DNA of 64,000 nt from Acidimicrobiia bacterium (GTDB lineage Bacteria; Actinomycetota; Acidimicrobiia; Spongiisociales; Spongiisociaceae), in contig WTGI01000077.1 in the NCBI GenBank assembly GCA_011523635.1, forward strand, positions 1,006 to 65,005, given 5' to 3'. Below the pieces are notes generated by a model. It searched no databases and was not told the DNA's origin. It was given only the letters and a program-made list of their open reading frames with translations. Made by a program: the position numbers and the translations under genes. Below, one piece after another: positions 1,420-21,379 of this stretch (its first letter is position 1; every line of letters starts with the position of its first letter).

Positions 1420-1498
1420 GGGGTACCGGCCCCCGCCCTACCTCCTAACTGCCACAGGGGATGCCCTTCTCGACTGAAAGGGATTGATCACTGATCTA

Positions 1499-1527
1499 TT
1501 GACATTGTTTAGCTAATAAGCTAAACT
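1499..1527 (+). promoter_or_regulatory. sigma70-like promoter TTGACA-N17-TAAACT with palindromic TTAGCTAA (1509-1516) in the spacer; upstream of the XRE regulator
   Basis: Read directly: ttgaca(1499-1504), 17 nt, taaact(1522-1527). GAGGAGGGG RBS at 1552-1560 before ATG 1567. Extra 17-nt palindrome gtctggctaagccagag at 1535-1551. Confidence 0.45.
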
Positions 1528-1566
1528 ACCGAAAAGTCTGGCTAAGCCAGAGAGGAGGGGCAGGTT

Positions 1567-1923
1567 ATGGCAGAGCGATTCGGAGATATCCTCAGAAGGA
1601 CCCGGCAACAGGCCAAGAGGACCCTGGGTGATGTCGCGAGGCTGTTGGACGTCTCCGTGGTCTATGTATCGGACGTGGAACGCGGCAACCGCAGGCCCTT
1701 CAGCAACGAGCGTATTCTCAAAATCGCGAGGTTTCTGAAGGCTGATCCAGTACCGCTAATTGCCGCGGCGGATGTCGACAAGGGTGTCATCGAGTACAAG
1801 ATATCCAAGACAAAGCCTCTGGAGGCCAGGGTTGTCGGAGACCTTGTCAGCGGTCTGGCCCGTGGCGGAGTCACGGAAGACCAGTTGGAGAGGATCAGAA
1901 CCATCCTGAAGGACTCCGAGTAG
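1567..1923 (+). CDS. XRE-family HTH transcriptional repressor (CapH-like)
   Basis: HTH_XRE signature LGDVARLLDVSVVYVSDVERGNRRP. 118 aa. Directly followed (11 nt) by the ImmA/IrrE peptidase gene. Confidence 0.75.
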   Translation: MAERFGDILRRTRQQAKRTLGDVARLLDVSVVYVSDVERGNRRPFSNERILKIARFLKADPVPLIAAADVDKGVIEYKISKTKPLEARVVGDLVSGLARGGVTEDQLERIRTILKDSE

Positions 1924-1933
1924 GCGCCCAACG

Positions 1934-2569
1934 ATGTGGCGGGGACTAGTGGGAGCGCGTGCGGACCGCGGTTACAGCTACCGGAATCTGGAGAGGATGG
2001 CCGCCCATGTTCGCGGCCTGCTCGGCTACTCTCCGACCGAGGCGATCGATACGCTGCATCTTTTCGACGGCCTCGACATCGCGGTGGTGGATGAGACCGG
2101 CCGGGACATCCCGATACGCGGCGCCGTGATCGAACTCAACGGCTCCGAAGGGTATGCGAAGTACGACAGCAACCGCTGCGTCATCGAAATCCTGGCGTCG
2201 CCCGCTACCTACGACTGGTTGGAGAAGGGTCACCCGCGCGGCGGTTTCTTCGTTGCCCACGAGTTGGGCCACTGCCTGCTACATACCGACCAACTCGTGC
2301 GCCTGGCCCAGATGCCCAAGGCGGAGCAGGCCGCCCACCACCGAAGTGGGGAGGAGGTCGGGCACGAAGCCTACGAGGACACCGAGTGGCAGGCTAACGC
2401 CTTCGCCAGCGCCCTGCTGATGCCCGCCCAGGGACTCCAGATCCTCGGGCAGGAACACGGTGAACTCTCACCGGACATCATCGTCGAGCACTTTCACGTC
2501 TCTGCCGAAGCTGCGCGCTACCGGCTCCAACTGTACAACGACAGGAAGACGGAGTTGCTCCAGCGCTAG
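1934..2569 (+). CDS. ImmA/IrrE-family zinc metallopeptidase (DUF955, CapP-like)
   Basis: HEXXH motif in FFVAHELGHCLLH, plus conserved downstream E...ANAFASALLMP typical of ImmA/IrrE. Confidence 0.75.
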   Translation: MWRGLVGARADRGYSYRNLERMAAHVRGLLGYSPTEAIDTLHLFDGLDIAVVDETGRDIPIRGAVIELNGSEGYAKYDSNRCVIEILASPATYDWLEKGHPRGGFFVAHELGHCLLHTDQLVRLAQMPKAEQAAHHRSGEEVGHEAYEDTEWQANAFASALLMPAQGLQILGQEHGELSPDIIVEHFHVSAEAARYRLQLYNDRKTELLQR

Positions 2570-2883
2570 CCTCCAGGACGGCCATGAGACCCGCCCCACC
2601 TGCCGCCATCCCAGTCCGAGCCAGCGGGGTGTCACCGTTCCATGGCGTGACGTTACGACGTGACCTAGGCTCCGGAAGAGTTGCATCTGCTTCGACCGGC
2701 TCTTCGTCCCGCGGGACTACGGGGCGGAGGGAACACCTCGCACCGGTCGGCTAACGCCCCTTCCCCTCTCTGTCCCGTCCTCTCGTTGTCACTGAGGTCG
2801 TCCCGGAACCCTCGAAAGCGCGGCGGGTCGACCGACGCGCCATGCGGGAGGAATTGGTTTCAGGGGATACTCCGCGCAGGTCC

Positions 2884-2912
2884 TTGACAGTGTTAAGCGC
2901 ATTAGCTAACTT
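2884..2912 (+). promoter_or_regulatory. sigma70-like promoter TTGACA-N17-TAACTT with the same TTAGCTAA palindrome (2902-2909); upstream of the Ubl operon
   Basis: ttgaca(2884-2889), 17 nt, taactt(2907-2912). GCTAACT direct repeat. Hairpin cccctcggctgagggg at 2923-2938. AAGGAGG RBS before ATG 2988. Confidence 0.45.
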
Positions 2913-2987
2913 GCTAACTAACTCCCCTCGGCTGAGGGGTCGTCGGACCGAAAACAAGACCCCCGTTTCAGCGAAGGAGGCTGAATC

Positions 2988-3269
2988 ATGGTACCAGACA
3001 ACAAGCCGCAGACCATTGACGTGGAGGACCACAAGACGGTCACCATCGTCGTGGAAGGCATCCCCCACCAGTGGCCCGAGGAGTACATCACCTATGCGCA
3101 GGTGGTCACCCTCGAAGTGCCTGACTACGCCCAGCACCCGGAGATCACCTACACGGTGATCTACAAGGGAGGCCCCCGCAACAAGCCCGAAGGCACCCTC
3201 TCCAAGGGTGGCACCGTCAAGGTCGTCGAAGGAATGGTCTTCAATGTTTCAGAAACTGGCCAGTCATAA
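2988..3269 (+). CDS. multiubiquitin-domain (beta-grasp Ubl) protein
   Basis: 93 aa. ...ITYTVIYKGGPRNKPEGTLSKGGTVKVVEGMVFNVSETGQS resembles the multiubiquitin family seen in prokaryotic E1/E2 operons. Confidence 0.6.
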   Translation: MVPDNKPQTIDVEDHKTVTIVVEGIPHQWPEEYITYAQVVTLEVPDYAQHPEITYTVIYKGGPRNKPEGTLSKGGTVKVVEGMVFNVSETGQS

Positions 3270-4437
3270 TCACGACCTCCGGCGTCTGCTCGAAAAGGGC
3301 TATGCGATAGCCGTCGATAGCAATCACCTCGTCGTCCGCGACATTCCGTATCTGGACGGCGAGGGTGGCCTGCAGACGGGCGCCATCGTCGCCAAGCTGG
3401 AGTTCATCGACCAGGAGCGAGTCACCCCGACGGACCACCAAGTGTACTTCGCCGGGTCGGTACCCCACGGGTTGGGCGGAAGTCCGATCCCGAACCTGGG
3501 CGGAGGACCCACGACCATCGCCCTGAGCGAGGCCTGTAGCGATGTGGTGGTCCAGCGGTCATTCTCCAACAAGCCCAGAGCCACGGGGAAGTTCGAGGAC
3601 TTCTTCCACAAGATCGAGAGCTACGTCGCAATCATTTCAGGGCCGGCGATGGAAGCCCACAGGGCCACCCCCTACACGTTCCGGTCCGTGGACGAGGCCC
3701 CGACCGATTCGGTGTTTAAGTTCCACGACACCCTGACCACCCGGGCGGAGATCTCGGACCTGGCCGCGAAGTTCAAGGACGATGTGGTCGCCATCATTGG
3801 CCTGGGCGGTACAGGCTCGTACCTCCTGGACTTCCTGGCAAAGACGCCCGTCCGGGAGATTCGGGCGTTCGACCTGGACCCCTACCACGTACACAACGCC
3901 TTCCGGTCCCCCGGCCGGCTGGGGAAAAGTGAGTTGGGGAAGTCAAAGGCGGAGGTTTACGGCGGCCGCTACGAGAACTTCCGCACGGGCCTGTCTGTGA
4001 CCCCCGTGTTCATCGACGCGTCCTGCCGCGACGAGGTGGACGGGGTCACCTTCGCATTCGTCTGTGTCGATAAGGGTCCGTCCAGAGCGGGCATCTTCGA
4101 CCTGCTCATCTCCATGGGCATCCCCTTCATCGACGTGGGTATGGGACTGAACCGGAAGAGGGGCCCCATCAGCGGCCTGCTGCGCACCACCTACTACTCG
4201 GCGGAGCACGGGCAAGAGGTCAGGGAGAGAGACCTGGCCCCGCTAACCGATGACCCGGATGACATCTACCGGACGAACATCCAGATCAGCGAACTGAACG
4301 CCCTCAACGCATGTCTGGCGGTCGTCAGGTTCAAGCAACTCAGGGGCTTCTACTTCGAGGACGTTCCCTACCACCACCTGGTCATGGACATAGGCGACCT
4401 CAGGATGGTCGGCGAGTGTGACCTTGGCGAAGATTAG
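3244..4437 (+). CDS. E1-like ThiF/MoeB adenylyltransferase fused to an N-terminal ~190-aa domain (possibly E2-like)
   Basis: Rossmann nucleotide-binding motif VVAIIGLGGTGSYLLDFL and ThiF-like FVCVDKGPSRAGIFDLLISMGIPFIDVGMG. ATG 3244 overlaps the Mub stop by 26 nt; the ORF could also start at GTG 3208. Confidence 0.65.
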   Translation: MFQKLASHNHDLRRLLEKGYAIAVDSNHLVVRDIPYLDGEGGLQTGAIVAKLEFIDQERVTPTDHQVYFAGSVPHGLGGSPIPNLGGGPTTIALSEACSDVVVQRSFSNKPRATGKFEDFFHKIESYVAIISGPAMEAHRATPYTFRSVDEAPTDSVFKFHDTLTTRAEISDLAAKFKDDVVAIIGLGGTGSYLLDFLAKTPVREIRAFDLDPYHVHNAFRSPGRLGKSELGKSKAEVYGGRYENFRTGLSVTPVFIDASCRDEVDGVTFAFVCVDKGPSRAGIFDLLISMGIPFIDVGMGLNRKRGPISGLLRTTYYSAEHGQEVRERDLAPLTDDPDDIYRTNIQISELNALNACLAVVRFKQLRGFYFEDVPYHHLVMDIGDLRMVGECDLGED

Positions 4438-4828
4438 GCTGGAACGAGTCCACTACATGCCGCAGGAGCTAAGTCCCGGGGTGCTCTACGTCTCCGAGGA
4501 GTTCGGCACCGCGGCACACCTGTGCGCCTGCGGATGCGGCACAAAGGTCAGGACGCCCCTTGGTCCCACCGAGTGGTTCCTGGAGGAGACCGATGATGGG
4601 CCGACGCTTTGCCCATCGATCGGCAACTGGCAGCAAGCCTGCCAATCGCACTATCTGATCACAAGTGGTGAGGTGGTCTGGGCCAAGGGGTGGACCGCCG
4701 AAGAGATCGCCGACGGTCGGCGCCGTGAAGAGGCGCGCCGGCGTAAGCACTATGAAGCCCTCGACCGCAAGCACCGGAGCGTCCTGCGCAGGCTGTGGCG
4801 GTGGATCAGCAGCCTGTTCAAACGCTAG
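4418..4828 (+). CDS. DUF6527-like Cys-rich small protein (accessory of the Ubl operon)
   Basis: HLCACGCGTKV...C(x9)C cluster. Start is GTG 4418 (alternative ATG 4457). Overlaps the E1 stop by 20 nt. Confidence 0.5.
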   Translation: MTLAKIRLERVHYMPQELSPGVLYVSEEFGTAAHLCACGCGTKVRTPLGPTEWFLEETDDGPTLCPSIGNWQQACQSHYLITSGEVVWAKGWTAEEIADGRRREEARRRKHYEALDRKHRSVLRRLWRWISSLFKR

Positions 4829-5099
4829 AGCCCAGTAACCGGTTCGGAACAGGGCACGAGGGAGACCGAACCTGACAGATGAGCTACCGGGTACGGGAAG
4901 TGCAGTACGCACTGTCGCCCAAGGTCCTGCGGAGCATGCTCAAGCCCACGCCGGAACCCGCCCTACGAGCGCCTTGCTGCCACTACACCACCACCCTGCA
5001 GCACGGTAACGCACCTCGCCTTGGATGTGCCAGGCCCGGACGCCTCAACTGAATTGCAAATCACGTTCAGGCCATCAGCTACGCAGTGATGGTCGCCGC

Positions 5100-8000
5100 T
5101 CAGGTAGCGGCTAGGTCACGGATTTGTTGGACGATCCTGAAGAACTCGTCGAGGTCGGGCTTGGCGAAGATGGTTTCGGGGCCCTCGGGCGCGACGCTGG
5201 TGAATGGGGACTCGTAGATACGGCCGGGTTGGATGGTGCCGTGTTCGGTGAGGTAGTCGATGACCAGGCTGACGAAGTTGATTTGGTTGACGCTGTAGCG
5301 CTTGTCGTTGAGGAATCTGGCAAACACCCGTTTGGCGGCGGTGCGGTCGAGGCCGACAAGGGAGCGGACGAAGAGTCCGAAGCTGCCGGCACGCATGGTG
5401 GCTTCGGCGAAGGTGTCCGTATCGCCGATGCCAGCCGCGACAAGCACCCGCTGAAGGTCCTGCATGTCGGCTGCTGTGATCGGATGACCGTTGCGGACCT
5501 TGGCGACGATGTCATTGGCGAAGTGGTCTTTGAGGAATCGCTCGGCCTTTTTCTTGAATTGCTCGAAGTCGTGGCTACCAACGCTTCCGCCGATGCCTGG
5601 GAGTTCGATCTCGGTGCCTTCGCCCATCGAGTCTGTGAAATCCGAGTACAGGGGCGTCTTGTGGACGGTTTCGACAAGCTGGACAAGGTTCCGTAGGCGC
5701 TTGCGGGCATCTTCGAGCATGGGATACGTGACGTCGATCCACCACTCGTCGGTTTGGATGTCGATGATCAGTTCTAGCTGCGTGGCGACGGCGGGGATTG
5801 CCGTTCCAAGGTCTTCGAGCGCTGATGCCATGTTGATGATGCGCTTACGTTGTCGCTCGAACGGTTCGTGGCGAAGCAGGCCTAGCTGAGCATTGAGCAT
5901 GAGGACGTCGAAGCGCTTGGCCTCCTCGTTGTCGGGGTCGAGTTGATCGGGGAGCTTCGCAATCCGGTTGTTGAGATCTGCCAGGTCTTGCAGGGTGAGC
6001 GTGTCCCATGCCTCTTGGGTACGGAACCGCTCGACCAGTTCGAGATGGGGACGCACGAGAAAGTTGTACTCGTTCATCGATGCCACAGTCTCACGCAGCG
6101 TGGTGGCGATGTCGGATCGATCGTCGGCGAGAGCCTCGATGCCATCCAGGGCTTGCAGGAGTTCGACGCGGGCAGTGAACAGGATCTCGCTCAGCGGGGC
6201 CGCGCTCTTTGGATCTGCCACAGGGAGCGGCTGGCTGAAGTACTCAAGGTTGCTGCAGAAGTCGAACACGTTGAATGATGTCTTGTCGTCGCCTGGGCCG
6301 AACAGGTCCTTGCAGAGGCGGGTACCACGGCCGAGCATCTGCCAGAACTTGGTCTTGGACCTGACCATCTTGAAGAAGACAAGGTTGACGACCTCGGGTA
6401 CGTCGATGCCGGTATCGAGCATGTCAACGCTGATCGCGATGTGTGGTGCCTTGTCTCTGTTGGAGAAGTCGTCGATCAGGCTCTGTGCGTAGTTGACCTG
6501 GTGGGTGATCACCCGGGCGAAGTTGCCAGCGTCGAGCGCCGGGTAGTTGATGTCGAAACGTTCCTTGATGTAGTCGGCGTGGCGCTGGTTCTTGGCGAAG
6601 ATAATTGTCTTCCCCAGCCGGTCACCACCTGCCACCGTCACGCCTTCGGTCATGAGGTATTTCAGAACCTGGTCGACGGTGTCCTCGTTGAATAGCCACT
6701 TGTTGAGCTCGGCGGCGTTGACCTCATCTGGCGGCTCGATCGGGATGCCGTCATCATCCACGCCCCACTCGAGCTCGTCCCACTCGGCTTTCTCGTCTTC
6801 GGACAGGTCGCCGTAGCGGATGCCCTCGCGCACGAACTTCAGCGGTACCGATACTCCTCGGGGTGGGACAAGGTACCCGTCCCGGATCGCATCATCGAGC
6901 GAGTAGGCGTCGGTTGGTACTCCTGTCTCCAGATCAAACAGGTCATAGGTGTTCTTGTCGACCTCGTCCTTAGGGGTGGCAGTCAGTCCCACCAACAGCG
7001 AGTCGAAGTAGTCGAAGATGCCCCGGTACTTTCGATATACCGACCGGTGCGCTTCGTCGATCACCACCAGATCGAAATGCCCGACACCGAACCGGCGGGT
7101 GCCGTCAGACCGGTACTCATCGATCTTGCCGACCATCGTCTGGTACGTAGACACGTACACCCGTCCGTCTTCGGCGCCTTCACTGACCAGGTTCACGGGC
7201 GCCGAGTCCGGCAAGTGGGTCTTGAACGCGTTGACCGCCTGATTCACCAACGCAGTGCGATCCGCCAAGAACAGCACACGCTTCACCCAACCAGCCCGCA
7301 TCAACAGATCCACAAGGGCAATCACAGTGCGGGTCTTACCAGCGCCTGTGGCCATCACCACCAGTGCCTTACGCTGCTTGTCAACCTCGAAGTGCTCGGC
7401 AACCGCCTGGATCGCTCGCTGTTGATAGTGGCGGTCTACGATCCCCTCGCTGACATCCAAAGATGACAGTGACAACTGGCTATTCCGTCGCTGGATCAGC
7501 AGCGCCAACTCGTCGGCCGTGCAGTAGCCCTGCACCCTTCGAGCCGGATACCTCGTGTCGTCCCACAGCCAATGCTCATACCCGTTGCTGTAGAAAACGA
7601 CCGGGCGCTGTCCCGTCTCAGCCTCTAGGCAATTCGCGTACAGTTTGGCTTGCTGTTGGCCAGCCTGAGGGGCGACCGAAGTCTTCTTCGCCTCCACCAC
7701 GGCCAATGGCAACCCATCGTCGCCCCACAGCACATAGTCGACGTAGCCAACCCCCGAGACCGAAGGCATCCCCCGTACCTCGTATTCGATCTCGCATCCG
7801 TCATCAGGGTCGGCCCAGCCCGCCTCGCCTAGCAGAGCGTCTATCTTGTACCGGCGCGTTTCTGCCTCGGACCAGTCGTGCGCCCCGATCGGAATGGACT
7901 CGGCTGCCTTCTTCGCCGCCGCTACCTCAGCCCTCAACTCCCCTAACTGTGCAGCGAGCCCTTCGGCCGTTTGGTGAGGCTCCGCCAACCCATGACGGGC

Positions 8001-8510
8001 CCGCAAGCCGTTCGCGACATCCCGTCCCAGACGTTCCTCAAGATCTTGACGGGCCTTCAGTGAAGGCTTCGCTTGCCCGCCATCGCCTCGGAGAAGGCCC
8101 GGGTCGAAATGCGCCAGAGGATCGGGTTTTGTTGATCGGCCATAGGTGAAGGCCAACCACAGACAGAACTGGAACAACGCAGACACCACCTCCACAGCGT
8201 CCAGCCTCGACGGCGGCCTCGCCTTCTGCACCGCACGATCACCCGCGCGCTGAATCTTCCGAGCCCAACCGAAGACCCGACCACCGGCTAACGCCTTGAA
8301 TGCAGGTTCATTGATGCAGGCATCCAGATGATCCTCATACGGATCCGGAAGCCCACGGTCATACCGGTACATCCACCTGACACCCGACTCCAAACACTTC
8401 CTCGCATAGACCACCGCCGAGCCTGGATCCGACAACACGAGACGCTCTGCCCAACACGCCAGCCCAAACTCGACCGAGAAGTCCTCTTCGAGGAACGAGA
8501 ACTGGCTCAC
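5100..8510 (-). CDS. hsdR: Type I restriction enzyme R subunit
   Basis: SF2 helicase motifs VVMATGAGKT and DEAH-box (VVIDEAHRS). 1136 aa. 4-nt overlap with hsdS. Confidence 0.9.
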   Translation of the reverse strand: MSQFSFLEEDFSVEFGLACWAERLVLSDPGSAVVYARKCLESGVRWMYRYDRGLPDPYEDHLDACINEPAFKALAGGRVFGWARKIQRAGDRAVQKARPPSRLDAVEVVSALFQFCLWLAFTYGRSTKPDPLAHFDPGLLRGDGGQAKPSLKARQDLEERLGRDVANGLRARHGLAEPHQTAEGLAAQLGELRAEVAAAKKAAESIPIGAHDWSEAETRRYKIDALLGEAGWADPDDGCEIEYEVRGMPSVSGVGYVDYVLWGDDGLPLAVVEAKKTSVAPQAGQQQAKLYANCLEAETGQRPVVFYSNGYEHWLWDDTRYPARRVQGYCTADELALLIQRRNSQLSLSSLDVSEGIVDRHYQQRAIQAVAEHFEVDKQRKALVVMATGAGKTRTVIALVDLLMRAGWVKRVLFLADRTALVNQAVNAFKTHLPDSAPVNLVSEGAEDGRVYVSTYQTMVGKIDEYRSDGTRRFGVGHFDLVVIDEAHRSVYRKYRGIFDYFDSLLVGLTATPKDEVDKNTYDLFDLETGVPTDAYSLDDAIRDGYLVPPRGVSVPLKFVREGIRYGDLSEDEKAEWDELEWGVDDDGIPIEPPDEVNAAELNKWLFNEDTVDQVLKYLMTEGVTVAGGDRLGKTIIFAKNQRHADYIKERFDINYPALDAGNFARVITHQVNYAQSLIDDFSNRDKAPHIAISVDMLDTGIDVPEVVNLVFFKMVRSKTKFWQMLGRGTRLCKDLFGPGDDKTSFNVFDFCSNLEYFSQPLPVADPKSAAPLSEILFTARVELLQALDGIEALADDRSDIATTLRETVASMNEYNFLVRPHLELVERFRTQEAWDTLTLQDLADLNNRIAKLPDQLDPDNEEAKRFDVLMLNAQLGLLRHEPFERQRKRIINMASALEDLGTAIPAVATQLELIIDIQTDEWWIDVTYPMLEDARKRLRNLVQLVETVHKTPLYSDFTDSMGEGTEIELPGIGGSVGSHDFEQFKKKAERFLKDHFANDIVAKVRNGHPITAADMQDLQRVLVAAGIGDTDTFAEATMRAGSFGLFVRSLVGLDRTAAKRVFARFLNDKRYSVNQINFVSLVIDYLTEHGTIQPGRIYESPFTSVAPEGPETIFAKPDLDEFFRIVQQIRDLAAT

Positions 8511-9667
8511 AACTCACCCTGGAACGCACGCTGCTGTAGCGAAGCGAACAGCCTGTCGCATCGCCGGGATGAGCGATTGAGGACATCTCGCTGCCGCGCG
8601 ATCATCCTCAAGTAAGACTCGAACTGTCGCTGAAGCTTGAGCGCAGGAATCGGGATCTTGATTTCCTTGAGGATTGCTTGGTTAATCTTGTGTGTCCCGT
8701 TGGTAGTTCGCGCAGCACTCTCGATCTGACGACGAACGATTGGCGTATTCCAGACTCGACTAAGAAAGTCTCGCGAAATCAACTCAGAATCACACCGAGC
8801 AGCGATCATCGTATCAGGAAAGGCGACATCGGGGAGACTTTGTTGTGGATACTTCCCTCGCCCAACCAGAAACAGATTTCCGTTGCCACGACAAATGAGA
8901 AACAGGTCTGCTGAAACTGTCTGCTGCACGACATGAGGCCTAACAAAAGTGCTGTTCTTGACTGCATCTGGATCAAAGGACAAACCAGTAATGGCTGAAA
9001 GGGTTAGTACTCGTCCTGGGAATTCACCTGACGTTGATGGTGACACTCCATTACGCAGTGGTTTCGTCATTAATGTCTCAAACCTTACTTGTCTAAGCGT
9101 CGTTAGATTATCGAACAGGTCGGCAAACACGGCTTCGACGAATCTGTCGAGCTTGGCGAGGGCCTGGCGGCGCTTCGCTCGAAGCGCCTCAGCCGCGTCT
9201 AACACCGCTGCGATACGCCGCTGCTCCTCTAACGCCGGCAAGGAGATAGGAATGTCGGCGACGTACGATGGCCTGGCGCGAAGCAATGATCCTCCGACCC
9301 CTGCGACGGTCTGGATAAAGGCATGATGAAATCGATCGGACACCAGTACATAGCGCAAGTACGCAGGATCGAAGCGATCACTCCGGAAGATGATCCATTC
9401 GCTCGACCCGATGGCCGGCCGATCAGAGCCCAGCTCTACAACCCATGCGCGTCGAATGTGCGGGACAATCTTTGAGAGGAGGACGTCACCGCTCTCAAGC
9501 ACCTGTTTACGGGAGCCGACTTCCCTGCCACTAACGAGCTCGGGCACCTTGGCATCGAATGCTGGGATGCTGAAGAGTTCGAACTCATCATCGGGATTCT
9601 TGCGTGGATCGATGGAACGCGTTCTTGTTGACATCAGTTCACCAAGCGGTACGCTTGCGAAAGTCAT
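8507..9667 (-). CDS. hsdS: Type I RM specificity subunit with two target recognition domains
   Basis: Duplicated TRD architecture with conserved spacer helices (LPALEEQRRIAAVLD ... IPIPALKLQRQFESYL). Overlaps hsdM and hsdR by 4 nt each. Confidence 0.8.
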   Translation of the reverse strand: MTFASVPLGELMSTRTRSIDPRKNPDDEFELFSIPAFDAKVPELVSGREVGSRKQVLESGDVLLSKIVPHIRRAWVVELGSDRPAIGSSEWIIFRSDRFDPAYLRYVLVSDRFHHAFIQTVAGVGGSLLRARPSYVADIPISLPALEEQRRIAAVLDAAEALRAKRRQALAKLDRFVEAVFADLFDNLTTLRQVRFETLMTKPLRNGVSPSTSGEFPGRVLTLSAITGLSFDPDAVKNSTFVRPHVVQQTVSADLFLICRGNGNLFLVGRGKYPQQSLPDVAFPDTMIAARCDSELISRDFLSRVWNTPIVRRQIESAARTTNGTHKINQAILKEIKIPIPALKLQRQFESYLRMIARQRDVLNRSSRRCDRLFASLQQRAFQGEL

Positions 9668-11232
9668 GCCAACATTGCCTTAAGTTCGTCGACGCCTCTT
9701 AGGATTTCTGTCTCCAGGGCTGTGAGTTCGTCGAGGATCTGGGTTGGCGGTGGGTATTCGATTTCGTTGTAGATGATTTCTTTGTAGCGGTTGATGCTGA
9801 GGTCGTAGGCGTTGCTCACGATGTCGGACTTGGGTATGCAGAAGGACTGCTCGGTGCGGACACGTGACATCTCCGTAGTGGTGCGTTTCTGCCAGCGGGC
9901 GAGAACGTCGGGTAGGTTGTTCTTCTCATGCTCTTCATCGGTCAGCTCCCCCTCCGTGAGTACGCCGAGTTTGGCCTCGTCAAGTAGCGGGATGCGCTTG
10001 TCGTCGAGGCTGTAGCCGTCAGCCTCCAAGTCATAAAACCAGACATGGTCGGTGCCGCCAGAGTTGGTCTTGGTGAACAGCAGGATGGCGGTAGAGACCC
10101 CGGCGTAGGGTTTGAACACGCCGGATGGGAGCGAGACGATGCCCTCGAGCTTCTGGTCTTCAACCAGAATACGGCGAAGCTCTTTGTGAGCCTTGGTCGA
10201 GCCGAAGAGTATCCCATCGGGCACAATCACCGCCGCTCTTCCACCGGGTTTGAGGAGTCGCAAGAACAGTGTGAGAAACAGCAGTTCGGTCTTCTTGGTC
10301 TTGACGACCTTCAGGAGGTCCTTCGCTGTGCTCTCGTAGTCGAGCGAGCCTGCGAAGGGCGGGTTGGCCAGGATCAGGCTGTAGGACTCCGTGCCTCCGG
10401 CGTGGTCCTGGGCTAGGGAGTCCCGGTAGCTGATGTTGGGGTTCTGGACTCCGTGGAGCTGCATGTTCATCGACCCGATCCGGAGCATCGTGTTGTCGAA
10501 GTCATAGCCGGTGAACATCGTGCTGTGGAAATGTCGTGCCTTGACTGGGTCGGTCAACGCGATCGGATGTCGGTCACGGATGTGTTCGCCAGCCGCTACT
10601 AGGAACCCGCACGTCCCGCTTGCGGGATCGCAGATAGTGTCGTCTGGTTGGGGGGCGACCATTTCGACCATCAGCCGGATGATGTGGCGCGGGGTACGGA
10701 ACTGGCCGTTTTGCCCGGCTCTGGCGATCTTGGAGAGCATGTACTCGTAGACGTCACCCTTTGTGTCGCGGTCTGTCATCGGGATCGAGTCGAGACCGTC
10801 CACTGCCTTCTGCAGCAGCCCAGGGGTGGGGATCGTGAGACGGGCACCGCGCATGTGTTTGGCGTGAGTGCTCTCCTCCGCCCGCTGGTGCAGGAACGGG
10901 AAGACGTATCTCTCGACTACCTCGAACATGTCGGCCGCGGACATGTGCTTGAACCTCGACCAGCGAAGGTCACTGTACGGTCGGCCGTTGATGAGCCCTT
11001 CAGGCAGGAATTGTTGGCCCTTAGGGAAGATGACCACATCGATCGGCTGGCCGGTTCGGTTCGCTTTGTTCTCGGCGAGTGTCTGGCGTTCGTCGAGGGC
11101 CTTGATGAACAGCAGATAGGTGAGTTGCTCTATCACCTCGAGCGGGTTGGATATGCCACCCGACCAGAAGCTGTGCCAGACAGCGTCGATCTTGTTTCTG
11201 ACCTCACCGGTGAGCATTGGTTCCCACTTCAT
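9664..11232 (-). CDS. hsdM: Type I RM N6-adenine DNA methyltransferase
   Basis: HsdM N-terminal domain, motif I (DPASGTCGFL) and motif IV (NPPF in LILANPPFAGS). Confidence 0.9.
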   Translation of the reverse strand: MKWEPMLTGEVRNKIDAVWHSFWSGGISNPLEVIEQLTYLLFIKALDERQTLAENKANRTGQPIDVVIFPKGQQFLPEGLINGRPYSDLRWSRFKHMSAADMFEVVERYVFPFLHQRAEESTHAKHMRGARLTIPTPGLLQKAVDGLDSIPMTDRDTKGDVYEYMLSKIARAGQNGQFRTPRHIIRLMVEMVAPQPDDTICDPASGTCGFLVAAGEHIRDRHPIALTDPVKARHFHSTMFTGYDFDNTMLRIGSMNMQLHGVQNPNISYRDSLAQDHAGGTESYSLILANPPFAGSLDYESTAKDLLKVVKTKKTELLFLTLFLRLLKPGGRAAVIVPDGILFGSTKAHKELRRILVEDQKLEGIVSLPSGVFKPYAGVSTAILLFTKTNSGGTDHVWFYDLEADGYSLDDKRIPLLDEAKLGVLTEGELTDEEHEKNNLPDVLARWQKRTTTEMSRVRTEQSFCIPKSDIVSNAYDLSINRYKEIIYNEIEYPPPTQILDELTALETEILRGVDELKAMLA

Positions 11233-13432
11233 TCTCCGTTTCGATCATCGCGTTCCTCAAACTGAGGATGCCGGCCACGAGGCCTTCGCGGACCGTATCG
11301 TAGGTGGTGCGGCAAGCTTCGAGTGTCTCGTCGAATTGGGACATCTGCGTCTCGATAGCGGTCAGACAGGCGACGAGGGCTTTCTGTTCTTCGAGGGCTG
11401 GCAGGTGAACTTCGATGTCTTTGAGCGTGTCATGCCTTAGGTTGGCGATGACACTTCCTGTGGCAGCTCCTGCGAGGGCTGCTCTCCCCCGCCTGGATGT
11501 CAGATACAGCCTCAGGTAGTCAGGATCCAAGCGTCTCTGGTCAGGTCGGAGTCTGATCAGCCAGTTCGAGAACGATGCAGGAACATCGAATCTGACTATG
11601 GCGCACGCTACAGATCTGTGGCCATCGATCCCACGCGTCACAAGTAGGAGATCCCCTCGTCGGACCATCCGACCTCGAACATGGCCGAACGTGGACTCAG
11701 CAGGAACGTTGGCCAGGATCGGCTGTCCCTGGATAACCATTCCGGTTGTGACGTACGGCGTCGGATCGCCTTCGCCGCCTTCACGTTGCCGTATGCCAGG
11801 CAACGGATCAGTGATCAACAAGTCACCCAGGCGGTGATGCGAGAAACTTGGGCCATCCACCGGGTCGATTGCCGAGAGTTGCTGCCGGATCGTAGCCTCA
11901 ACTGTCGGGAGAGCCGCCAGACGCTCCTTGACGGTCGTTGTGAGACGTTTCTGCCGGGACCGGATCGGCTCACCGTTGATCTCCGTGATCTTCACCGCGT
12001 ACTGGATGTAGCGACTAGGGCCCAGTGCGCTGCCGTTTGCAACAATCTCGTCGGTGGTGCCGATGCCGCTGAACTGAGCTTCGGGTTCCAGCCGTCCGTC
12101 ACGCCACCGCTGTATCGTCCGTCCGATCTTGACTATCTCGGGTGGCTGGAAGCTACGCACTCCCCCTCTCTCGGGCGTTCCGAGTTGACGAGCATCGAGA
12201 AACAGAACCCTCCCGGCACGATTCACTCGGTCCTTCTGCAGAACCAAGATCGCAGTGGGTATAGACACCGACGTGAGCATCCCCGGCGGGAGGTAGAGGA
12301 CAGCATCCACGTAGTCGGCCTCTAACAGTCCCGTCCGGATTATGACCTCGGAGCGGCCACGTCTCGTCAAAGCGGTGGTCGGGAGCACAACAACTCCGAT
12401 ACCGGAGTCGGCGAGGTGGAACACAACGTGCTGAACCCAAGCAAGGTCAGCGTGCCCCTTCGGAGGTAACCCTAAGAACCACCGGGGATCACCGTCCATC
12501 TGCTCGACCGAGGCGAGACGGAGACCGAACGGAGGTTCGACAGCGATGCGGTCGGCTCTCAACTGCCAGAGACGATCATCGACCATCGTGTCACCGGTCA
12601 CGAGCTGGAAGGACGCGCCCTGCAACAGCAGGTGGAGGAACCCGAGCCTCCAGGTCTGCTCCCTGATCTCTTGACCATAGAGTTGGGTCACCGTATCCGA
12701 ATAGCGTTCCCATGTCGATCCCAGGAAGACAGCTCTGCCACAAGCTGGGTCGTAGACAGTTCCCTCAAGAGGTTCGAGCAAGGCTGTCATGATGTCGACA
12801 AGGCTTGGCCCACTATCGACGTTGCCCGCCTTAGCCCCACGACGCTTGGCGAAGTCTTCGAGGAGGACTGTTGAGGCATCCCCCCAGTCGGTTGAGCGGG
12901 GGTGGAAGTGACCAACAGTTTCGATCAGTCGAGTCCAGTCTGAAGGCCGCAACTGGCTCACAACAGACGACACCCTCAGCGCCCTAGCGAGGTCGGGGTC
13001 CGACATGGTCAGAGCGTCGGCGGTCGAGGAATACACCAGTCCGGGGTCGTTTGCTGCTTCGATCCGGCCCCAGGCACGTGCGAGCGGAGTCAGACGCTCG
13101 TATCGACCGGAAGCTGCCGCGCGCAGGGCGAATAGTTGCAGCAGGACCTCCGGAGTGTCGAACACACCGGGGAGATCGCGCACTGCATACGTAGCCTGTA
13201 ACACCGCACTCTCGATCGAGTCCTGTTCTGGAAGGTGGACACTCTTGCCCGCGGCTCGAAGCCACGCCACGATCTGAGCCCGGTCGAAGAGTCCTTCCTC
13301 AGCTTCTGTCGGGAAGTCCGGGTGGCGACGCTTCCAGTTCGACACCGCAGACGGTCTAACCCCAGCGAGTCTTGCGATCTCGGCACCTGTGATCAGGATC
13401 GGAGTTGATGGGTTTGTATCTGGGACCGTCAT
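11204..13432 (-). CDS. HTH + gamma-class N6-adenine MTase + TRD fusion protein (second, non-canonical M/S polypeptide)
   Basis: N-terminal HTH (ILITGAEIARLAGVRPSAVSNWKRRHPDFP). Motif I (YDPACGRAVFLG) and motif IV (VEPPFG). C-terminal HsdS-like TRD with LPALEEQKALV helix. First gene body of the operon after the NYN gene. Confidence 0.75.
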   Translation of the reverse strand: MTVPDTNPSTPILITGAEIARLAGVRPSAVSNWKRRHPDFPTEAEEGLFDRAQIVAWLRAAGKSVHLPEQDSIESAVLQATYAVRDLPGVFDTPEVLLQLFALRAAASGRYERLTPLARAWGRIEAANDPGLVYSSTADALTMSDPDLARALRVSSVVSQLRPSDWTRLIETVGHFHPRSTDWGDASTVLLEDFAKRRGAKAGNVDSGPSLVDIMTALLEPLEGTVYDPACGRAVFLGSTWERYSDTVTQLYGQEIREQTWRLGFLHLLLQGASFQLVTGDTMVDDRLWQLRADRIAVEPPFGLRLASVEQMDGDPRWFLGLPPKGHADLAWVQHVVFHLADSGIGVVVLPTTALTRRGRSEVIIRTGLLEADYVDAVLYLPPGMLTSVSIPTAILVLQKDRVNRAGRVLFLDARQLGTPERGGVRSFQPPEIVKIGRTIQRWRDGRLEPEAQFSGIGTTDEIVANGSALGPSRYIQYAVKITEINGEPIRSRQKRLTTTVKERLAALPTVEATIRQQLSAIDPVDGPSFSHHRLGDLLITDPLPGIRQREGGEGDPTPYVTTGMVIQGQPILANVPAESTFGHVRGRMVRRGDLLLVTRGIDGHRSVACAIVRFDVPASFSNWLIRLRPDQRRLDPDYLRLYLTSRRGRAALAGAATGSVIANLRHDTLKDIEVHLPALEEQKALVACLTAIETQMSQFDETLEACRTTYDTVREGLVAGILSLRNAMIETENEVGTNAHR

Positions 13433-14049
13433 GCCGCCACCTCCGGGGGTGCAAGATTGGGTAGGAGCCGCACGAACGTAGCGGCATTCGCAAGTCCACT
13501 CGAGAGGCTTCGCCCGCGTGATACCACCCCGACAGGCAGCCCGTGCGATCGGAATCTCGTGACCATCTCTTCGAAGATGCCGTCGCCCGATCCGATAATG
13601 ATTTGGTCATACCGTTCAGCTATGAAGCGGTCATCGTTCACCCAAGCCAGCAACGCAAGATCGGCTCCGTCCGGACCTCGACCTGACAGGACCCTGGGCG
13701 ATGGCCATGCGGCTTTGGTGATGGGGAGAAGTGCCGGATTGACAGCAACCACCACGTGATCTCCGTCGACCACCGAGGCTCCAGCCTTATAGAGGGCAAT
13801 GGCCTGGAGGAGCATGTGAGTACCCGTCCACGGACCACCCATCAGGTTCTCCAGGTCGACCAGATGCAGGGTCCGACCGGGGGGAACGTGCTGGGCCCGA
13901 GGGAAACGTCGCGGCGAAACCGCGTATAGGTGCGCGTAGCGCCGCCGCACGTCTCGGCTGTGAACAGTGCCTCTGAGTGGTTTGTGACTTAGAGTCATAA
14001 GGTTGACACTAGCGGGTCGCCCCACCGCTGTCAAGTGACTTCCATTCAC
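13429..14049 (-). CDS. NYN/LabA-like (PIN-fold) domain protein
   Basis: LHLVDLENL...GGP and ...QIIIGSGDGIFEEMV match the NYN acidic-residue pattern. 4-nt overlap with the MTase-TRD gene. Start is GTG 14049 or ATG 13998. Confidence 0.55.
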   Translation of the reverse strand: MNGSHLTAVGRPASVNLMTLSHKPLRGTVHSRDVRRRYAHLYAVSPRRFPRAQHVPPGRTLHLVDLENLMGGPWTGTHMLLQAIALYKAGASVVDGDHVVVAVNPALLPITKAAWPSPRVLSGRGPDGADLALLAWVNDDRFIAERYDQIIIGSGDGIFEEMVTRFRSHGLPVGVVSRGRSLSSGLANAATFVRLLPNLAPPEVAA

Positions 14050-14104: not shown

Positions 14105-14152
14105 GCTGTGGGCCCGGCAGGACTCGAACCTGCACCCAACGGATTATGAGTC
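14105..14152. repeat. Direct repeat of the 3' end of tRNA-Met (att-site duplication)
   Basis: 14109-14152 tgggcccggcaggactcgaacctgcacccaacggattatgagtc matches 21306-21349 (1 mismatch) plus shared gctg flank, same orientation. Partner is the full tRNA at 21306-21379. Confidence 0.7.
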
Positions 14153-14818
14153 GGCATAAAACCCCAGCTAAAGTATAGTTTTCAGGTCAGTCCCATTCGA
14201 CTGACCCACAGGACACTAGGCATGGGCGGAGCCTTTCCCAGCAGAAACGCCAAGGCGCCCTCGGACTCCGCCCAGCCCGTCACATCCAGCCCCATAGTGG
14301 CACCCGGTGCTGGCGGCCGGCCTCATCCGCTCGCCGAGAATCGCGCACAACGGTGTCAAGGTCGACTTCGGCCCAGACCGCTCCGATCACCTCCCTGAGC
14401 GAACCGCTGTGACTATGGCGAACGATACGGCGAAGTACAGCTTCCGATGGACCGTTGATTGTCGGATCTGCTCTGGGCCATACGGAGACGTTGGGGATTT
14501 CCATAGCAAGCTCGGAGGTGTCCTGGCTCCCCGTTGTTTCGGCAGCGCGGTCAACGCGTCGCCTGCTTGGTTGTCGCGGCGGTATCCTGGGCGACGGCTA
14601 TTCCATGACGGCCGCGATAAGTGGCTGTACTCGTTTGGCTGTCGCCGGGCTGCTGTTCCTCGGGGCGAGGTGCGGTGGCAGTCGCAGATGAGTACCGACG
14701 TTTCCTGACTCGGAGGGCTGGGCTCGCTCTGTGCCTGAAGGCCGGCCAACCGGAATCGTGCTGGAGCACATCGCCATTCCTTGTGACTGATCGGCTCGAT
14801 GACAGATGGCCGTTGGCG

Positions 14819-21109: not shown

Positions 21110-21305
21110 TAGAGGTTGATCGAGAAGACTCCGTCAACGCACAGCTCAACATTGCGGCCTCGATGTTGGTCCTTCGGAGCGCTTGGTGACAACCAGTTCG
21201 GACGGGTAGATCCTGCACAATCTGCTGGTGGGCGAGAGCCAGAACCCGCCTCTGACCTTGGAGCTTAAGTAGCTATGAAACAGTTAGCGACTAGTAGAAA
21301 CGCTG

Positions 21306-21379
21306 TGGGCCCGGCAGGACTCGAACCTGCAACCAACGGATTATGAGTCCGCTGCTCTGACCGCTTGAGCTACGGGCCC
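21306..21379 (-). tRNA. tRNA-Met (anticodon CAT), 74 nt, CCA not encoded
   Basis: Cloverleaf folded by hand: acceptor gggcccg/cgggccc, D stem gctc/gagc, anticodon stem gcgga/tccgt with loop ctCATaa, T stem gcagg/cctgc with ttcgagt loop. Confidence 0.9.

Follow-up and report, generated by a model that had tools for sequence, protein, structure and literature searches.

A probable Type II Bub operon behind a repressor/peptidase switch on an Acidimicrobiia contig

The window analysed here is a stretch of 64,000 nucleotides (nt) from an Acidimicrobiia bacterium (GCA_011523635.1, contig WTGI01000077.1, positions 1,006 to 65,005 of the forward strand). Near its start lies a group of five genes which is very probably a copy of the known Type II Bub operon, placed behind a repressor/peptidase switch. 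From the sequence alone, a Bub/6E-type operon for ubiquitin-like conjugation had been proposed here (hereafter the original prediction), and this proposal was borne out, since domains, gene order, active-site residues and alignments all match Type II Bub. The original prediction had also regarded the composition of the operon as uncharacterised; this part has to be withdrawn, because the absence of a JAB peptidase, the DUF6527 partner and the E1 with an N-terminal domain together make up the published definition of Type II Bub. The operon type is not new, and the locus is an uncatalogued member of a described family.

Operons formerly termed "6E/DUF6527" were renamed Bub by Ye, Gong, Chambers & Corbett (bioRxiv 10.1101/2024.11.21.623953). 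According to that work, a Type II Bub operon (formerly 6E.2/DUF6527) encodes the ubiquitin-like protein (Ubl) BubA, the E2-E1 fusion BubBD and the DUF6527 protein BubE, typically without a JAB/JAMM peptidase. Catalysis in Bub runs through oxyester intermediates, formed on a crossover-loop tyrosine in the E1 and on a serine in the E2, and DUF6527 is a zinc-binding Ser/His protease that strips conjugates (10.1101/2024.11.21.623953). The biochemistry was done on a Citrobacter Type I and an E. coli ZDHYS365 Type II operon, and conjugation by E. coli BubBD was abolished by S106A, R219A and Y342F (10.1101/2024.11.21.623953). The catalogue in Table S1 of the same preprint comprises 405 Type II and 139 Type I operons; no entry from Chloroflexota or Dehalococcoidia is found in it.

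In the window, the five genes and the two domains of BubBD were assigned as follows (lengths in amino acids, aa; HTH, helix-turn-helix; ORF, open reading frame).

1567-1923, + strand: HTH gene, 118 aa, CapH-like XRE-family repressor (Pfam HTH_31 E=2.7e-12, HTH_3 7.6e-10).
1934-2569, + strand: M78 peptidase gene, 211 aa, CapP-like or ImmA/IrrE-type zinc metallopeptidase (Pfam Peptidase_M78 E=4.9e-12, HELGH at residues 109-113).
2988-3269, + strand: bubA, 93 aa, single beta-grasp Ubl (Pfam Multi_ubiq PF14452 E=2.6e-14).
3244-4437, + strand (long ORF from 3208, 409 aa): bubBD, 397-aa E2-E1 fusion (Pfam DUF6791 3.9e-43, ThiF 1.1e-10).
4418-4828, + strand: bubE, 136 aa from GTG 4418 (Pfam DUF6527 PF20137 E=3.6e-22).
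BubBD residues ~1-160: E2 domain, DUF6791, with S108, H65 and K110.
BubBD residues ~165-397: E1 adenylation domain, with G186xGG, R221 and crossover-loop Y342.

All five genes were recovered as originally described, each as a + strand ORF with a significant Pfam match, and the HMM check on the 93-aa protein confirmed it as a beta-grasp/multiubiquitin protein. The complement and order of the last three genes (Ubl, E2-E1 fusion, DUF6527, JAB absent) are those of Type II Bub. Two lengths were revised. The E1-type protein had been given as 409 aa; the most likely start of bubBD, judged from its sequence, is ATG 3244, giving 397 aa, because the NCBIfam PRK06153.1-2 match (633 bits) to the long ORF starts at residue 13 and because 397 aa is the length of most of the 120 closest BubBD homologues listed. 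Its extra N-terminal domain, put at ~190 aa, spans ~160 aa instead. With this start, bubBD begins 26 nt ahead of the bubA stop, and the same 26-nt overlap is implied at loci L005 and L006 of two Dehalococcoidia metagenome-assembled genomes (MAGs) by the start offset and length of the BubA ORF. The overlap of bubBD with bubE is 20 nt (GTG 4418 versus the bubBD stop). Public gene calls for bubE differ in the start (136 versus 123 aa); GTG 4418 is favoured over ATG 4457 because V11 and P15 are conserved.

When 1.84 billion cluster representatives were searched exhaustively for BubBD relatives, 952 were found at E<=1e-10. For residue conservation, the window protein was aligned with 124 full-length cluster representatives, 34-58% identical to it (n=125), and gene neighbourhoods were taken from 80 species genomes carrying a BubBD relative. 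These genomes span Chloroflexota, Bacteroidota, Acidobacteriota, Verrucomicrobiota, Bacillota, Actinomycetota, Pseudomonadota, a candidate phyla radiation (CPR) bacterium and a Methanoperedens MAG. In this set, bubA lies directly upstream of bubBD in 77/80 genomes and bubE directly downstream in 79/80; three of the four gaps fall at contig ends, and the fourth (bubE at locus L034) coincides with a shortened bubBD ORF. The juxtaposition of bubA, bubBD and bubE is not due to chance. The neighbourhood check named in the original prediction thereby came out in favour of the operon, the trio being kept outside cofactor contexts. No other flanking gene family occurred in more than 6 of the 80 loci, and cofactor genes were not among the recurrent ones; recurring flanks include integrase-like and transposase-like proteins. 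Three-domain Ubls mark a sub-group to which Kluyvera georgiana, a Vibrio genome and a Stakelama MAG belong; at its loci L044, L047, L048, L049 and L071, a protein of ~1,130 aa that contains an M78-like segment is encoded ~4.2 kb upstream of bubBD in the same direction. At L047 and L049 at least, it is joined by conserved proteins of ~267 and ~192 aa, each family being present in 5 loci; this upstream module would be larger than, and distinct from, CapH/CapP.

In BubBD, the residues on which the published chemistry depends are in place. The window protein is 31% identical to E. coli BubBD end to end (E=7e-56), and its S108 corresponds to E. coli S106 (FSNKP motif), the position being serine in 124/125 aligned sequences. 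Invariant across all 125 are H65, R221 (E. coli R219), Y342, G186, G188, D196, D210 and K235, and nearly so are G189 (99%), G191 (98%) and D297 (99%). An alignment check had been suggested for the adenylation site, which turned out to be intact as regards both R221 and the glycine-rich ATP loop. None of the five cysteines of the window BubBD is conserved. The E. coli sequences were taken from Table S2 of 10.1101/2024.11.21.623953, and these as well as the Citrobacter sequences were machine-read from the PDF with errors (transposed letters, an offset of 1-2 residues, V for Y342), so that family-wide conservation was preferred for residue calls. The V at the Y342 column of the E. coli sequence was accordingly taken as a text-extraction error. 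One of the 124 homologues, cluster representative P0240 (398 aa), has a cysteine in place of the catalytic E2 serine (motif LMLCNMP) and retains H65, R221 and Y342; judged from its sequence, its E2 step may have gone back to thioester chemistry.

The N-terminal domain of BubBD had been called unclassified. Structure comparison places it nearest to BubB, with an E2/UBC fold. In a Foldseek search with the AF2 model of BubBD (pLDDT, predicted local distance difference test, 93), the seven best-scoring PDB structures were all Citrobacter BubCD (9eav, 9ea5, 9eae, 9ea4, 9ea8; E~1e-13), ranking ahead of PaaA, ThiF, MccB and UBA5, and the fold of the E1 half is nearest to BubCD. As the neighbours of the predicted structure are Bub entries, the domain is, on the model, a serine-type Bub E2. 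A sequence search of the PDB with BubBD returned TcdA only (E~1e-4), and a literature search for "DUF6791" returned nothing.

In E. coli ZDHYS365 BubA, it is the third beta-grasp to which the window BubA aligns by BLASTP (29% identity, E=2e-9), and the top PDB match of the window protein is the structure of that same domain, 9cd2 (E=3.5e-5). One-domain Ubls make up 40% of the catalogued Bub Ubls (companion preprint, Corbett laboratory). The protein ends in TGQS, directly followed by the stop codon (window 3258-3269), and a conserved T-x-x-S ahead of the stop (TGQS, TDKS, TNRS, TVQS) is the Type II BubA end. Among 77 homologues (loci L005-L084), the last residue is Ser in 73 and Ala in 2; the remaining two are outliers, of which at least that of L032 resembles a mis-called ORF. 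Since Ser directly precedes the stop codon, the Ubl is encoded as the mature protein, its last residue being Ser instead of Gly. The accessible part of the text of 10.1101/2024.11.21.623953 holds no comment on this residue.

The original prediction had seen no peptidase in the operon. This is correct for JAB, which is absent; a peptidase is nevertheless present, namely DUF6527 itself, BubE, and since this is a zinc-binding Ser/His protease the missing JAB is explained. With its E. coli counterpart, BubE shares 41% identity (E=4e-26). Its residues C36/C38/C40/C75, S67 and H78 align with Citrobacter C57/C59/C61/C99, S92 and H102, and in 82 BubE sequences C36 is present in 81 and C38, C40, C75, S67 and H78 in all. 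On this alignment, BubE is assigned as a zinc-binding Ser/His protease whose zinc site is of the C4 type and whose dyad is S67/H78. Its C-terminal tail is basic/hydrophobic, which fits the published "hydrophobic extension" of BubE (10.1101/2024.11.21.623953). A PDB sequence search with BubE gave no match.

Automated annotation of 2023 date would leave the operon unlabelled, because models for Bub are absent from PADLOC v2.0.0 (2023): neither BubA nor BubE was matched, and BubBD gave weak Cap2 "E1-E2" matches, 1e-5 at best, covering only the Rossmann region 169-272. In the gene table of contigs encoding the protein, PF20137 carries the label "BubE".

Upstream of the trio, the XRE-HTH and ImmA/IrrE-type pair was confirmed by Pfam and PADLOC matches and by the HELGH motif. 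The HTH protein matches the PADLOC capH model over residues 1-116 (1.3e-4), and the peptidase matches capP (6.4e-15), limited to profile positions 62-156 of 242. In a PDB sequence search the peptidase had no match, and the HTH protein matched only ClgR and designed repeat proteins. As with CapH+CapP, adjacent HTH and HEXXH peptidase genes lie next to the operon. Such control had been held to be uncharacterised, which is not the case: CapH+CapP were found beside 168/544 Bub operons (31%), such neighbours being scored as CapH+CapP by inspection (10.1101/2024.11.21.623953), and CapH/CapP-associated operons include 6e systems, CBASS and DISARM (Lau et al. 2022, bioRxiv 10.1101/2022.04.27.489752). 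In our neighbourhood set, HTH+M78 regulators occur at 38 of the 73 Bub loci with enough upstream sequence; the two genes form a divergent pair at 23 of these, a co-directional pair at 8 and a fusion at 7. Bub operons commonly have a short M78 partner (165-254 aa) beside them.

Two promoters and three operator-like sites were located around this pair.

1499-1527, + strand: regulator promoter, -35 TTGACA (1499-1504), 17-nt spacer, -10 TAAACT (1522-1527), consensus scan 10/12.
1509-1524, strandless: operator-like perfect palindrome TTAGCT-AATA-AGCTAA between the -35 and -10 of the regulator promoter.
2884-2912, + strand: putative bubA promoter, -35 TTGACA (2884-2889) and TANNNT-type -10 TAACTT (2907-2912), read from the sequence.
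2894-2909 (2 mismatches) and 2902-2917 (1 mismatch), strandless: two overlapping TTAGCT-N4-AGCTAA copies over the bubA -10 region.

The motif TTAGCT-N4-AGCTAA occurs three times in the 64 kb, all at the two promoters, where 0.27 occurrences are expected, and none of 100 shuffles reached three. The palindrome at 1509-1524 recurs unchanged in L005 and L006 and almost unchanged at a third locus, L014, its flanking bases being different; the regulator -35 TTGACA is kept in L014 and in 5/6 bases in L005 and L006. When the 418-bp capP-bubA spacer was compared between the window, L005, L006 and L014, the only fully conserved blocks were TTGACA with the operator, and the ribosome-binding site. As an enriched, conserved motif stands at both promoters, autoregulation and repression of bubA-BD-E from its own promoter are inferred, and the predicted control of both by the HTH repressor has good in silico support. 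The GC-rich part of the spacer at 2570-2880 (~300 bp) has no convincing ORF. Spacer length is similar in L005, L006 and L014 (377-423 bp), and the sequence is kept only in the closest relatives L005 and L006; because conservation of 2570-2880 is near cassette level in these two and largely lost in L014, no element is proposed there. The sigma-70 scan gave no + strand terminator after bubE.

Several observations weigh against the reading as a CapH/CapP-controlled, defence-type Bub operon. Characterised CapP consists of a peptidase, an HTH-like linker and, at its C-terminus, a GAF domain, with a groove for single-stranded DNA (ssDNA) between peptidase and GAF (CapP literature); in IrrE, too, one half of this groove is contributed by the GAF domain. 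In the window peptidase, Peptidase_M78 was the only domain found; the GAF domain and with it the three-domain architecture of CapP are missing, so that an ssDNA groove built as published is impossible. The pair shares the direction of the bub operon and does not lie on the opposite strand, whereas the CapH/CapP cases of Lau et al. 2022 (10.1101/2022.04.27.489752) are all divergent from the regulated operon. The bubA -10 is weak, and this promoter was not called by the consensus scan. In the E2 half, H65 and K110 are candidates for the His and Lys partners of the serine: H65 is present in 125/125 sequences and K110 (E. coli K108) is conserved at 88%, and mutation of K108 in E. coli was without effect (10.1101/2024.11.21.623953). 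The accessible part of the text of that preprint does not give the positions of the Lys and His accompanying the E2 serine. Finally, no Bub operon protected E. coli from phage (10.1101/2024.11.21.623953), so that the label "defence" is based on context only.

It is an appreciable possibility, short of even chances, that the regulator is an ImmR/ImmA-type switch and not a true CapH/CapP, and that its signal is something else than ssDNA held in a groove between peptidase and GAF. The 211-aa peptidase without GAF, the co-directional pair and the frequency of short M78 partners at Bub loci point in this direction, and as regards the missing GAF the window peptidase looks more ImmA-like in sequence. 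Bacillus subtilis ImmA is a short M78 peptidase. However, the best PADLOC match of the peptidase is still capP, the HTH protein is weakly capH, and Ye et al. counted such pairs as CapH+CapP; the two families are recognised as related and follow one logic.

A possible, though rather unlikely, alternative concerns the purpose of the operon: the Bub enzymes would work as described, and the pathway would not be antiphage but a DNA-damage or general stress response acting on host proteins, or one serving the mobile cassette. Besides the lack of phage protection, this is favoured by the companion preprint of the Corbett laboratory, which suggests a view beyond antiphage immunity, by the control of mobile-element behaviour through ImmR/ImmA-type pairs (Lau et al. 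2022, 10.1101/2022.04.27.489752), and by the movement of the five genes as a cassette (see below). Yet a Type I restriction-modification (R-M) system and a toxin-antitoxin (TA)-like pair adjoin the cassette in the window, published Bub operons sit in tRNA-associated mobile/defence loci (10.1101/2024.11.21.623953), and the same regulator type controls CBASS, DISARM and others (10.1101/2022.04.27.489752).

That BubBD is dead for transfer for want of a catalytic cysteine, and only adenylates or binds the Ubl, is very unlikely. Conserved cysteines are indeed absent throughout the 125 sequences, and bioinformatic work before 2024 came to this conclusion, as cited in 10.1101/2024.11.21.623953; but conjugation by the E. 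coli enzyme in vitro needs S106, R219 and Y342, whose counterparts here and throughout the family are fully or almost fully conserved. The reading as a sulfur-carrier or cofactor-biosynthesis module of the ThiF/MoeB type can practically be dismissed: for all the Pfam ThiF match, the weak NCBIfam ThiF and TcdA matches and the PDB sequence matches to TcdA only, BubA ends in TGQS and not in Gly-Gly, an E2 domain and a dedicated protease are present, BubCD outranks ThiF structurally, and the homologues at 80 loci stand outside cofactor contexts.

Two further candidates were rejected. Bil (Type I/II) is defined by a separate E2 with a catalytic Cys, a JAB peptidase and an E1 of IAD-AAD-CYS architecture (10.1101/2024.11.21.623953); in the window, JAB is absent, the E2 is fused to the E1 and no conserved Cys is present. 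Type II CBASS (Cap2/Cap3) combines a CD-NTase with an E2-E1(-JAB) Cap2 that carries catalytic Cys residues; no cassette ORF matches CD-NTase families (Pfam, PADLOC), and the E1-E2 matches are weak.

For the Type II Bub operon, the following sequence of events is proposed. The 118-aa HTH protein would occupy the observed TTAGCT-N4-AGCTAA sites, which overlap the -10 region of its own and of the bubA promoter, keeping both off. Upon a stress signal, the HEXXH peptidase would cut the repressor and the operon would be induced. For characterised CapP the signal is DNA damage/ssDNA (CapP literature); because the GAF domain is missing from the window peptidase, the inducing signal is the least certain step. 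By homology, the E1 half would then adenylate the C-terminal carboxylate of BubA (Ser93) by means of the glycine-rich loop 186-191 and R221, and BubA would pass onto crossover-loop Y342 as an oxyester. The next acceptor would be S108 in the E2 half, probably that of the other protomer in a BubBD dimer, and from S108 BubA would go to a lysine of a target. BubE, with its C4 zinc site and S67/H78, would take BubA off its targets and so restrain the pathway. The steps from adenylation onwards are carried over by homology from the Citrobacter and E. coli biochemistry; all residues mutated there are conserved here.

Besides the two Dehalococcoidia MAGs, which are the closest named genomes (BubBD protein identity 88% and 84%), an identical BubBD protein is present on metagenome contigs with the same surroundings. 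The limits of the shared unit and the neighbouring systems in the window are as follows.

1487-4955, + strand: five-gene cassette with promoter, ~3.5 kb, the blastn block common to L005 and L006.
273-1419: TA-like pair of a DUF433 protein (210 aa) and a DUF5615 PIN-like protein (186 aa), genes overlapping by 47 nt (Pfam).
5100-11232, - strand: complete Type I R-M system hsdR/S/M (PADLOC REase_I 3.9e-172, Specificity_I 6.9e-74, MTase_I 5.4e-185).

When positions 1-22000 of the window were compared with L005 and L006 by blastn, only 1487-4955/4957 aligned, at 82-85% nt identity. The shared block begins 12 nt ahead of the first -35 box and stops 127 nt past bubE, and neither the TA-like pair nor the Type I R-M flank is part of the alignment. 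With nt similarity confined to this block, the five genes make up a discrete cassette that moves as one. The TA-like pair, lying outside the cassette boundary and not common to the Dehalococcoidia relatives, is taken as an independent insertion. The setting among defence genes, as predicted from the start, stands, since both systems adjoin the cassette.

Upstream of hsdM and in the same orientation, an ORF at 11204-13432 (- strand) encodes a 742-aa N6-methyltransferase fused to a single specificity domain (target recognition domain, TRD), and a 206-aa protein with a weak NYN-nuclease match is encoded on the - strand within 11204-14049. The methyltransferase-specificity ORF overlaps hsdM by 29 nt and the 206-aa ORF by 4 nt. 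These genes may form a second, unusual R-M or modification module. A 51-nt repeat, 96% identical, is found 7.1 kb apart at 14105-14155 and 21302-21352, the latter copy being the 3' part of a tRNA-Met (21305-21379, - strand). In sequence, the two look like att repeats flanking an island that was inserted at the tRNA. Between them lie genes for a 1043-aa DUF4365 protein, whose N-terminus is of the PADLOC Aga_REase type, for a protein with a DnaJ domain and for a Hypoth_Ymh protein; an integrase was not found.

Compared with E. coli ZDHYS365 Type II Bub, the window operon has the same three genes in the same order, likewise lacks JAB, and encodes a BubBD of 397 aa as well. Shared are also the E2 Ser, the adenylation Arg, the crossover-loop Tyr, the C4 and Ser/His sites of BubE and the terminal Ser of the Ubl (TDKS in E. 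coli, TGQS in the window). It differs in that its Ubl consists of one beta-grasp (93 aa) instead of three and in that the proteins are only 29-41% identical. In having a CapH/CapP-type regulator it resembles the 31% of catalogued operons mentioned above. The Citrobacter Type I operon (6E.1, BubAB-BubCD-BubE) employs the same E1 Tyr, E2 Ser and BubE chemistry, and its structures are, of those solved, the nearest to the two halves of BubBD (9ea4, 9ea5, 9ea8, 9eae, 9eav). There, unlike here, the Ubl is fused to the E2 and JAB to the E1, and the Ubl needs processing by JAB; in the window operon the E2 is fused to the E1, JAB is absent and the Ubl needs no processing. Bil and Type II CBASS Cap2/Cap3 are likewise bacterial E1/E2-based conjugation systems in defence contexts, but their Cys thioesters and JAB peptidase are absent here, and CBASS conjugates a CD-NTase instead of a Ubl.

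On the regulatory side, the window shares with CapH+CapP, with DdrO/IrrE and with ImmR/ImmA an XRE-type HTH gene beside an HEXXH M78 peptidase gene, upstream of a defence-type operon, and, with CapH+CapP and its relatives, a palindromic operator-like site in the target promoter. It departs from CapH+CapP in the GAF-less peptidase, in the co-directional pair with its own promoter and in the operator copies at both promoters. From this, one might propose that the co-directional regulator is a distinct CapH/CapP sub-type (GAF-less peptidase, two-promoter operator, sensing other than by the ssDNA groove) that co-evolved with Type II Bub as a 3.5-kb cassette; we regard this as doubtful.

Because the operon type, the oxyester chemistry, the DUF6527 protease and the link to CapH/CapP were all published between 2022 and 2025, the locus carries little weight as a discovery. 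It is a compact example of its kind, with a one-domain Ubl, a two-promoter operator layout and sharp cassette ends. For the family, it draws attention to two features: the M78 peptidases associated with Bub are often without the GAF domain that characterised CapP uses to sense ssDNA, and Type II Ubls terminate in Ser instead of Gly. If the sub-type reading were true, it would, together with the C-terminal Ser of BubA, point to features of Bub regulation and chemistry that have yet to be described. The residual interest lies in the question of Bub function and in a minor regulator variant, and the cassette could be a handy construct for asking what Bub conjugates and why.

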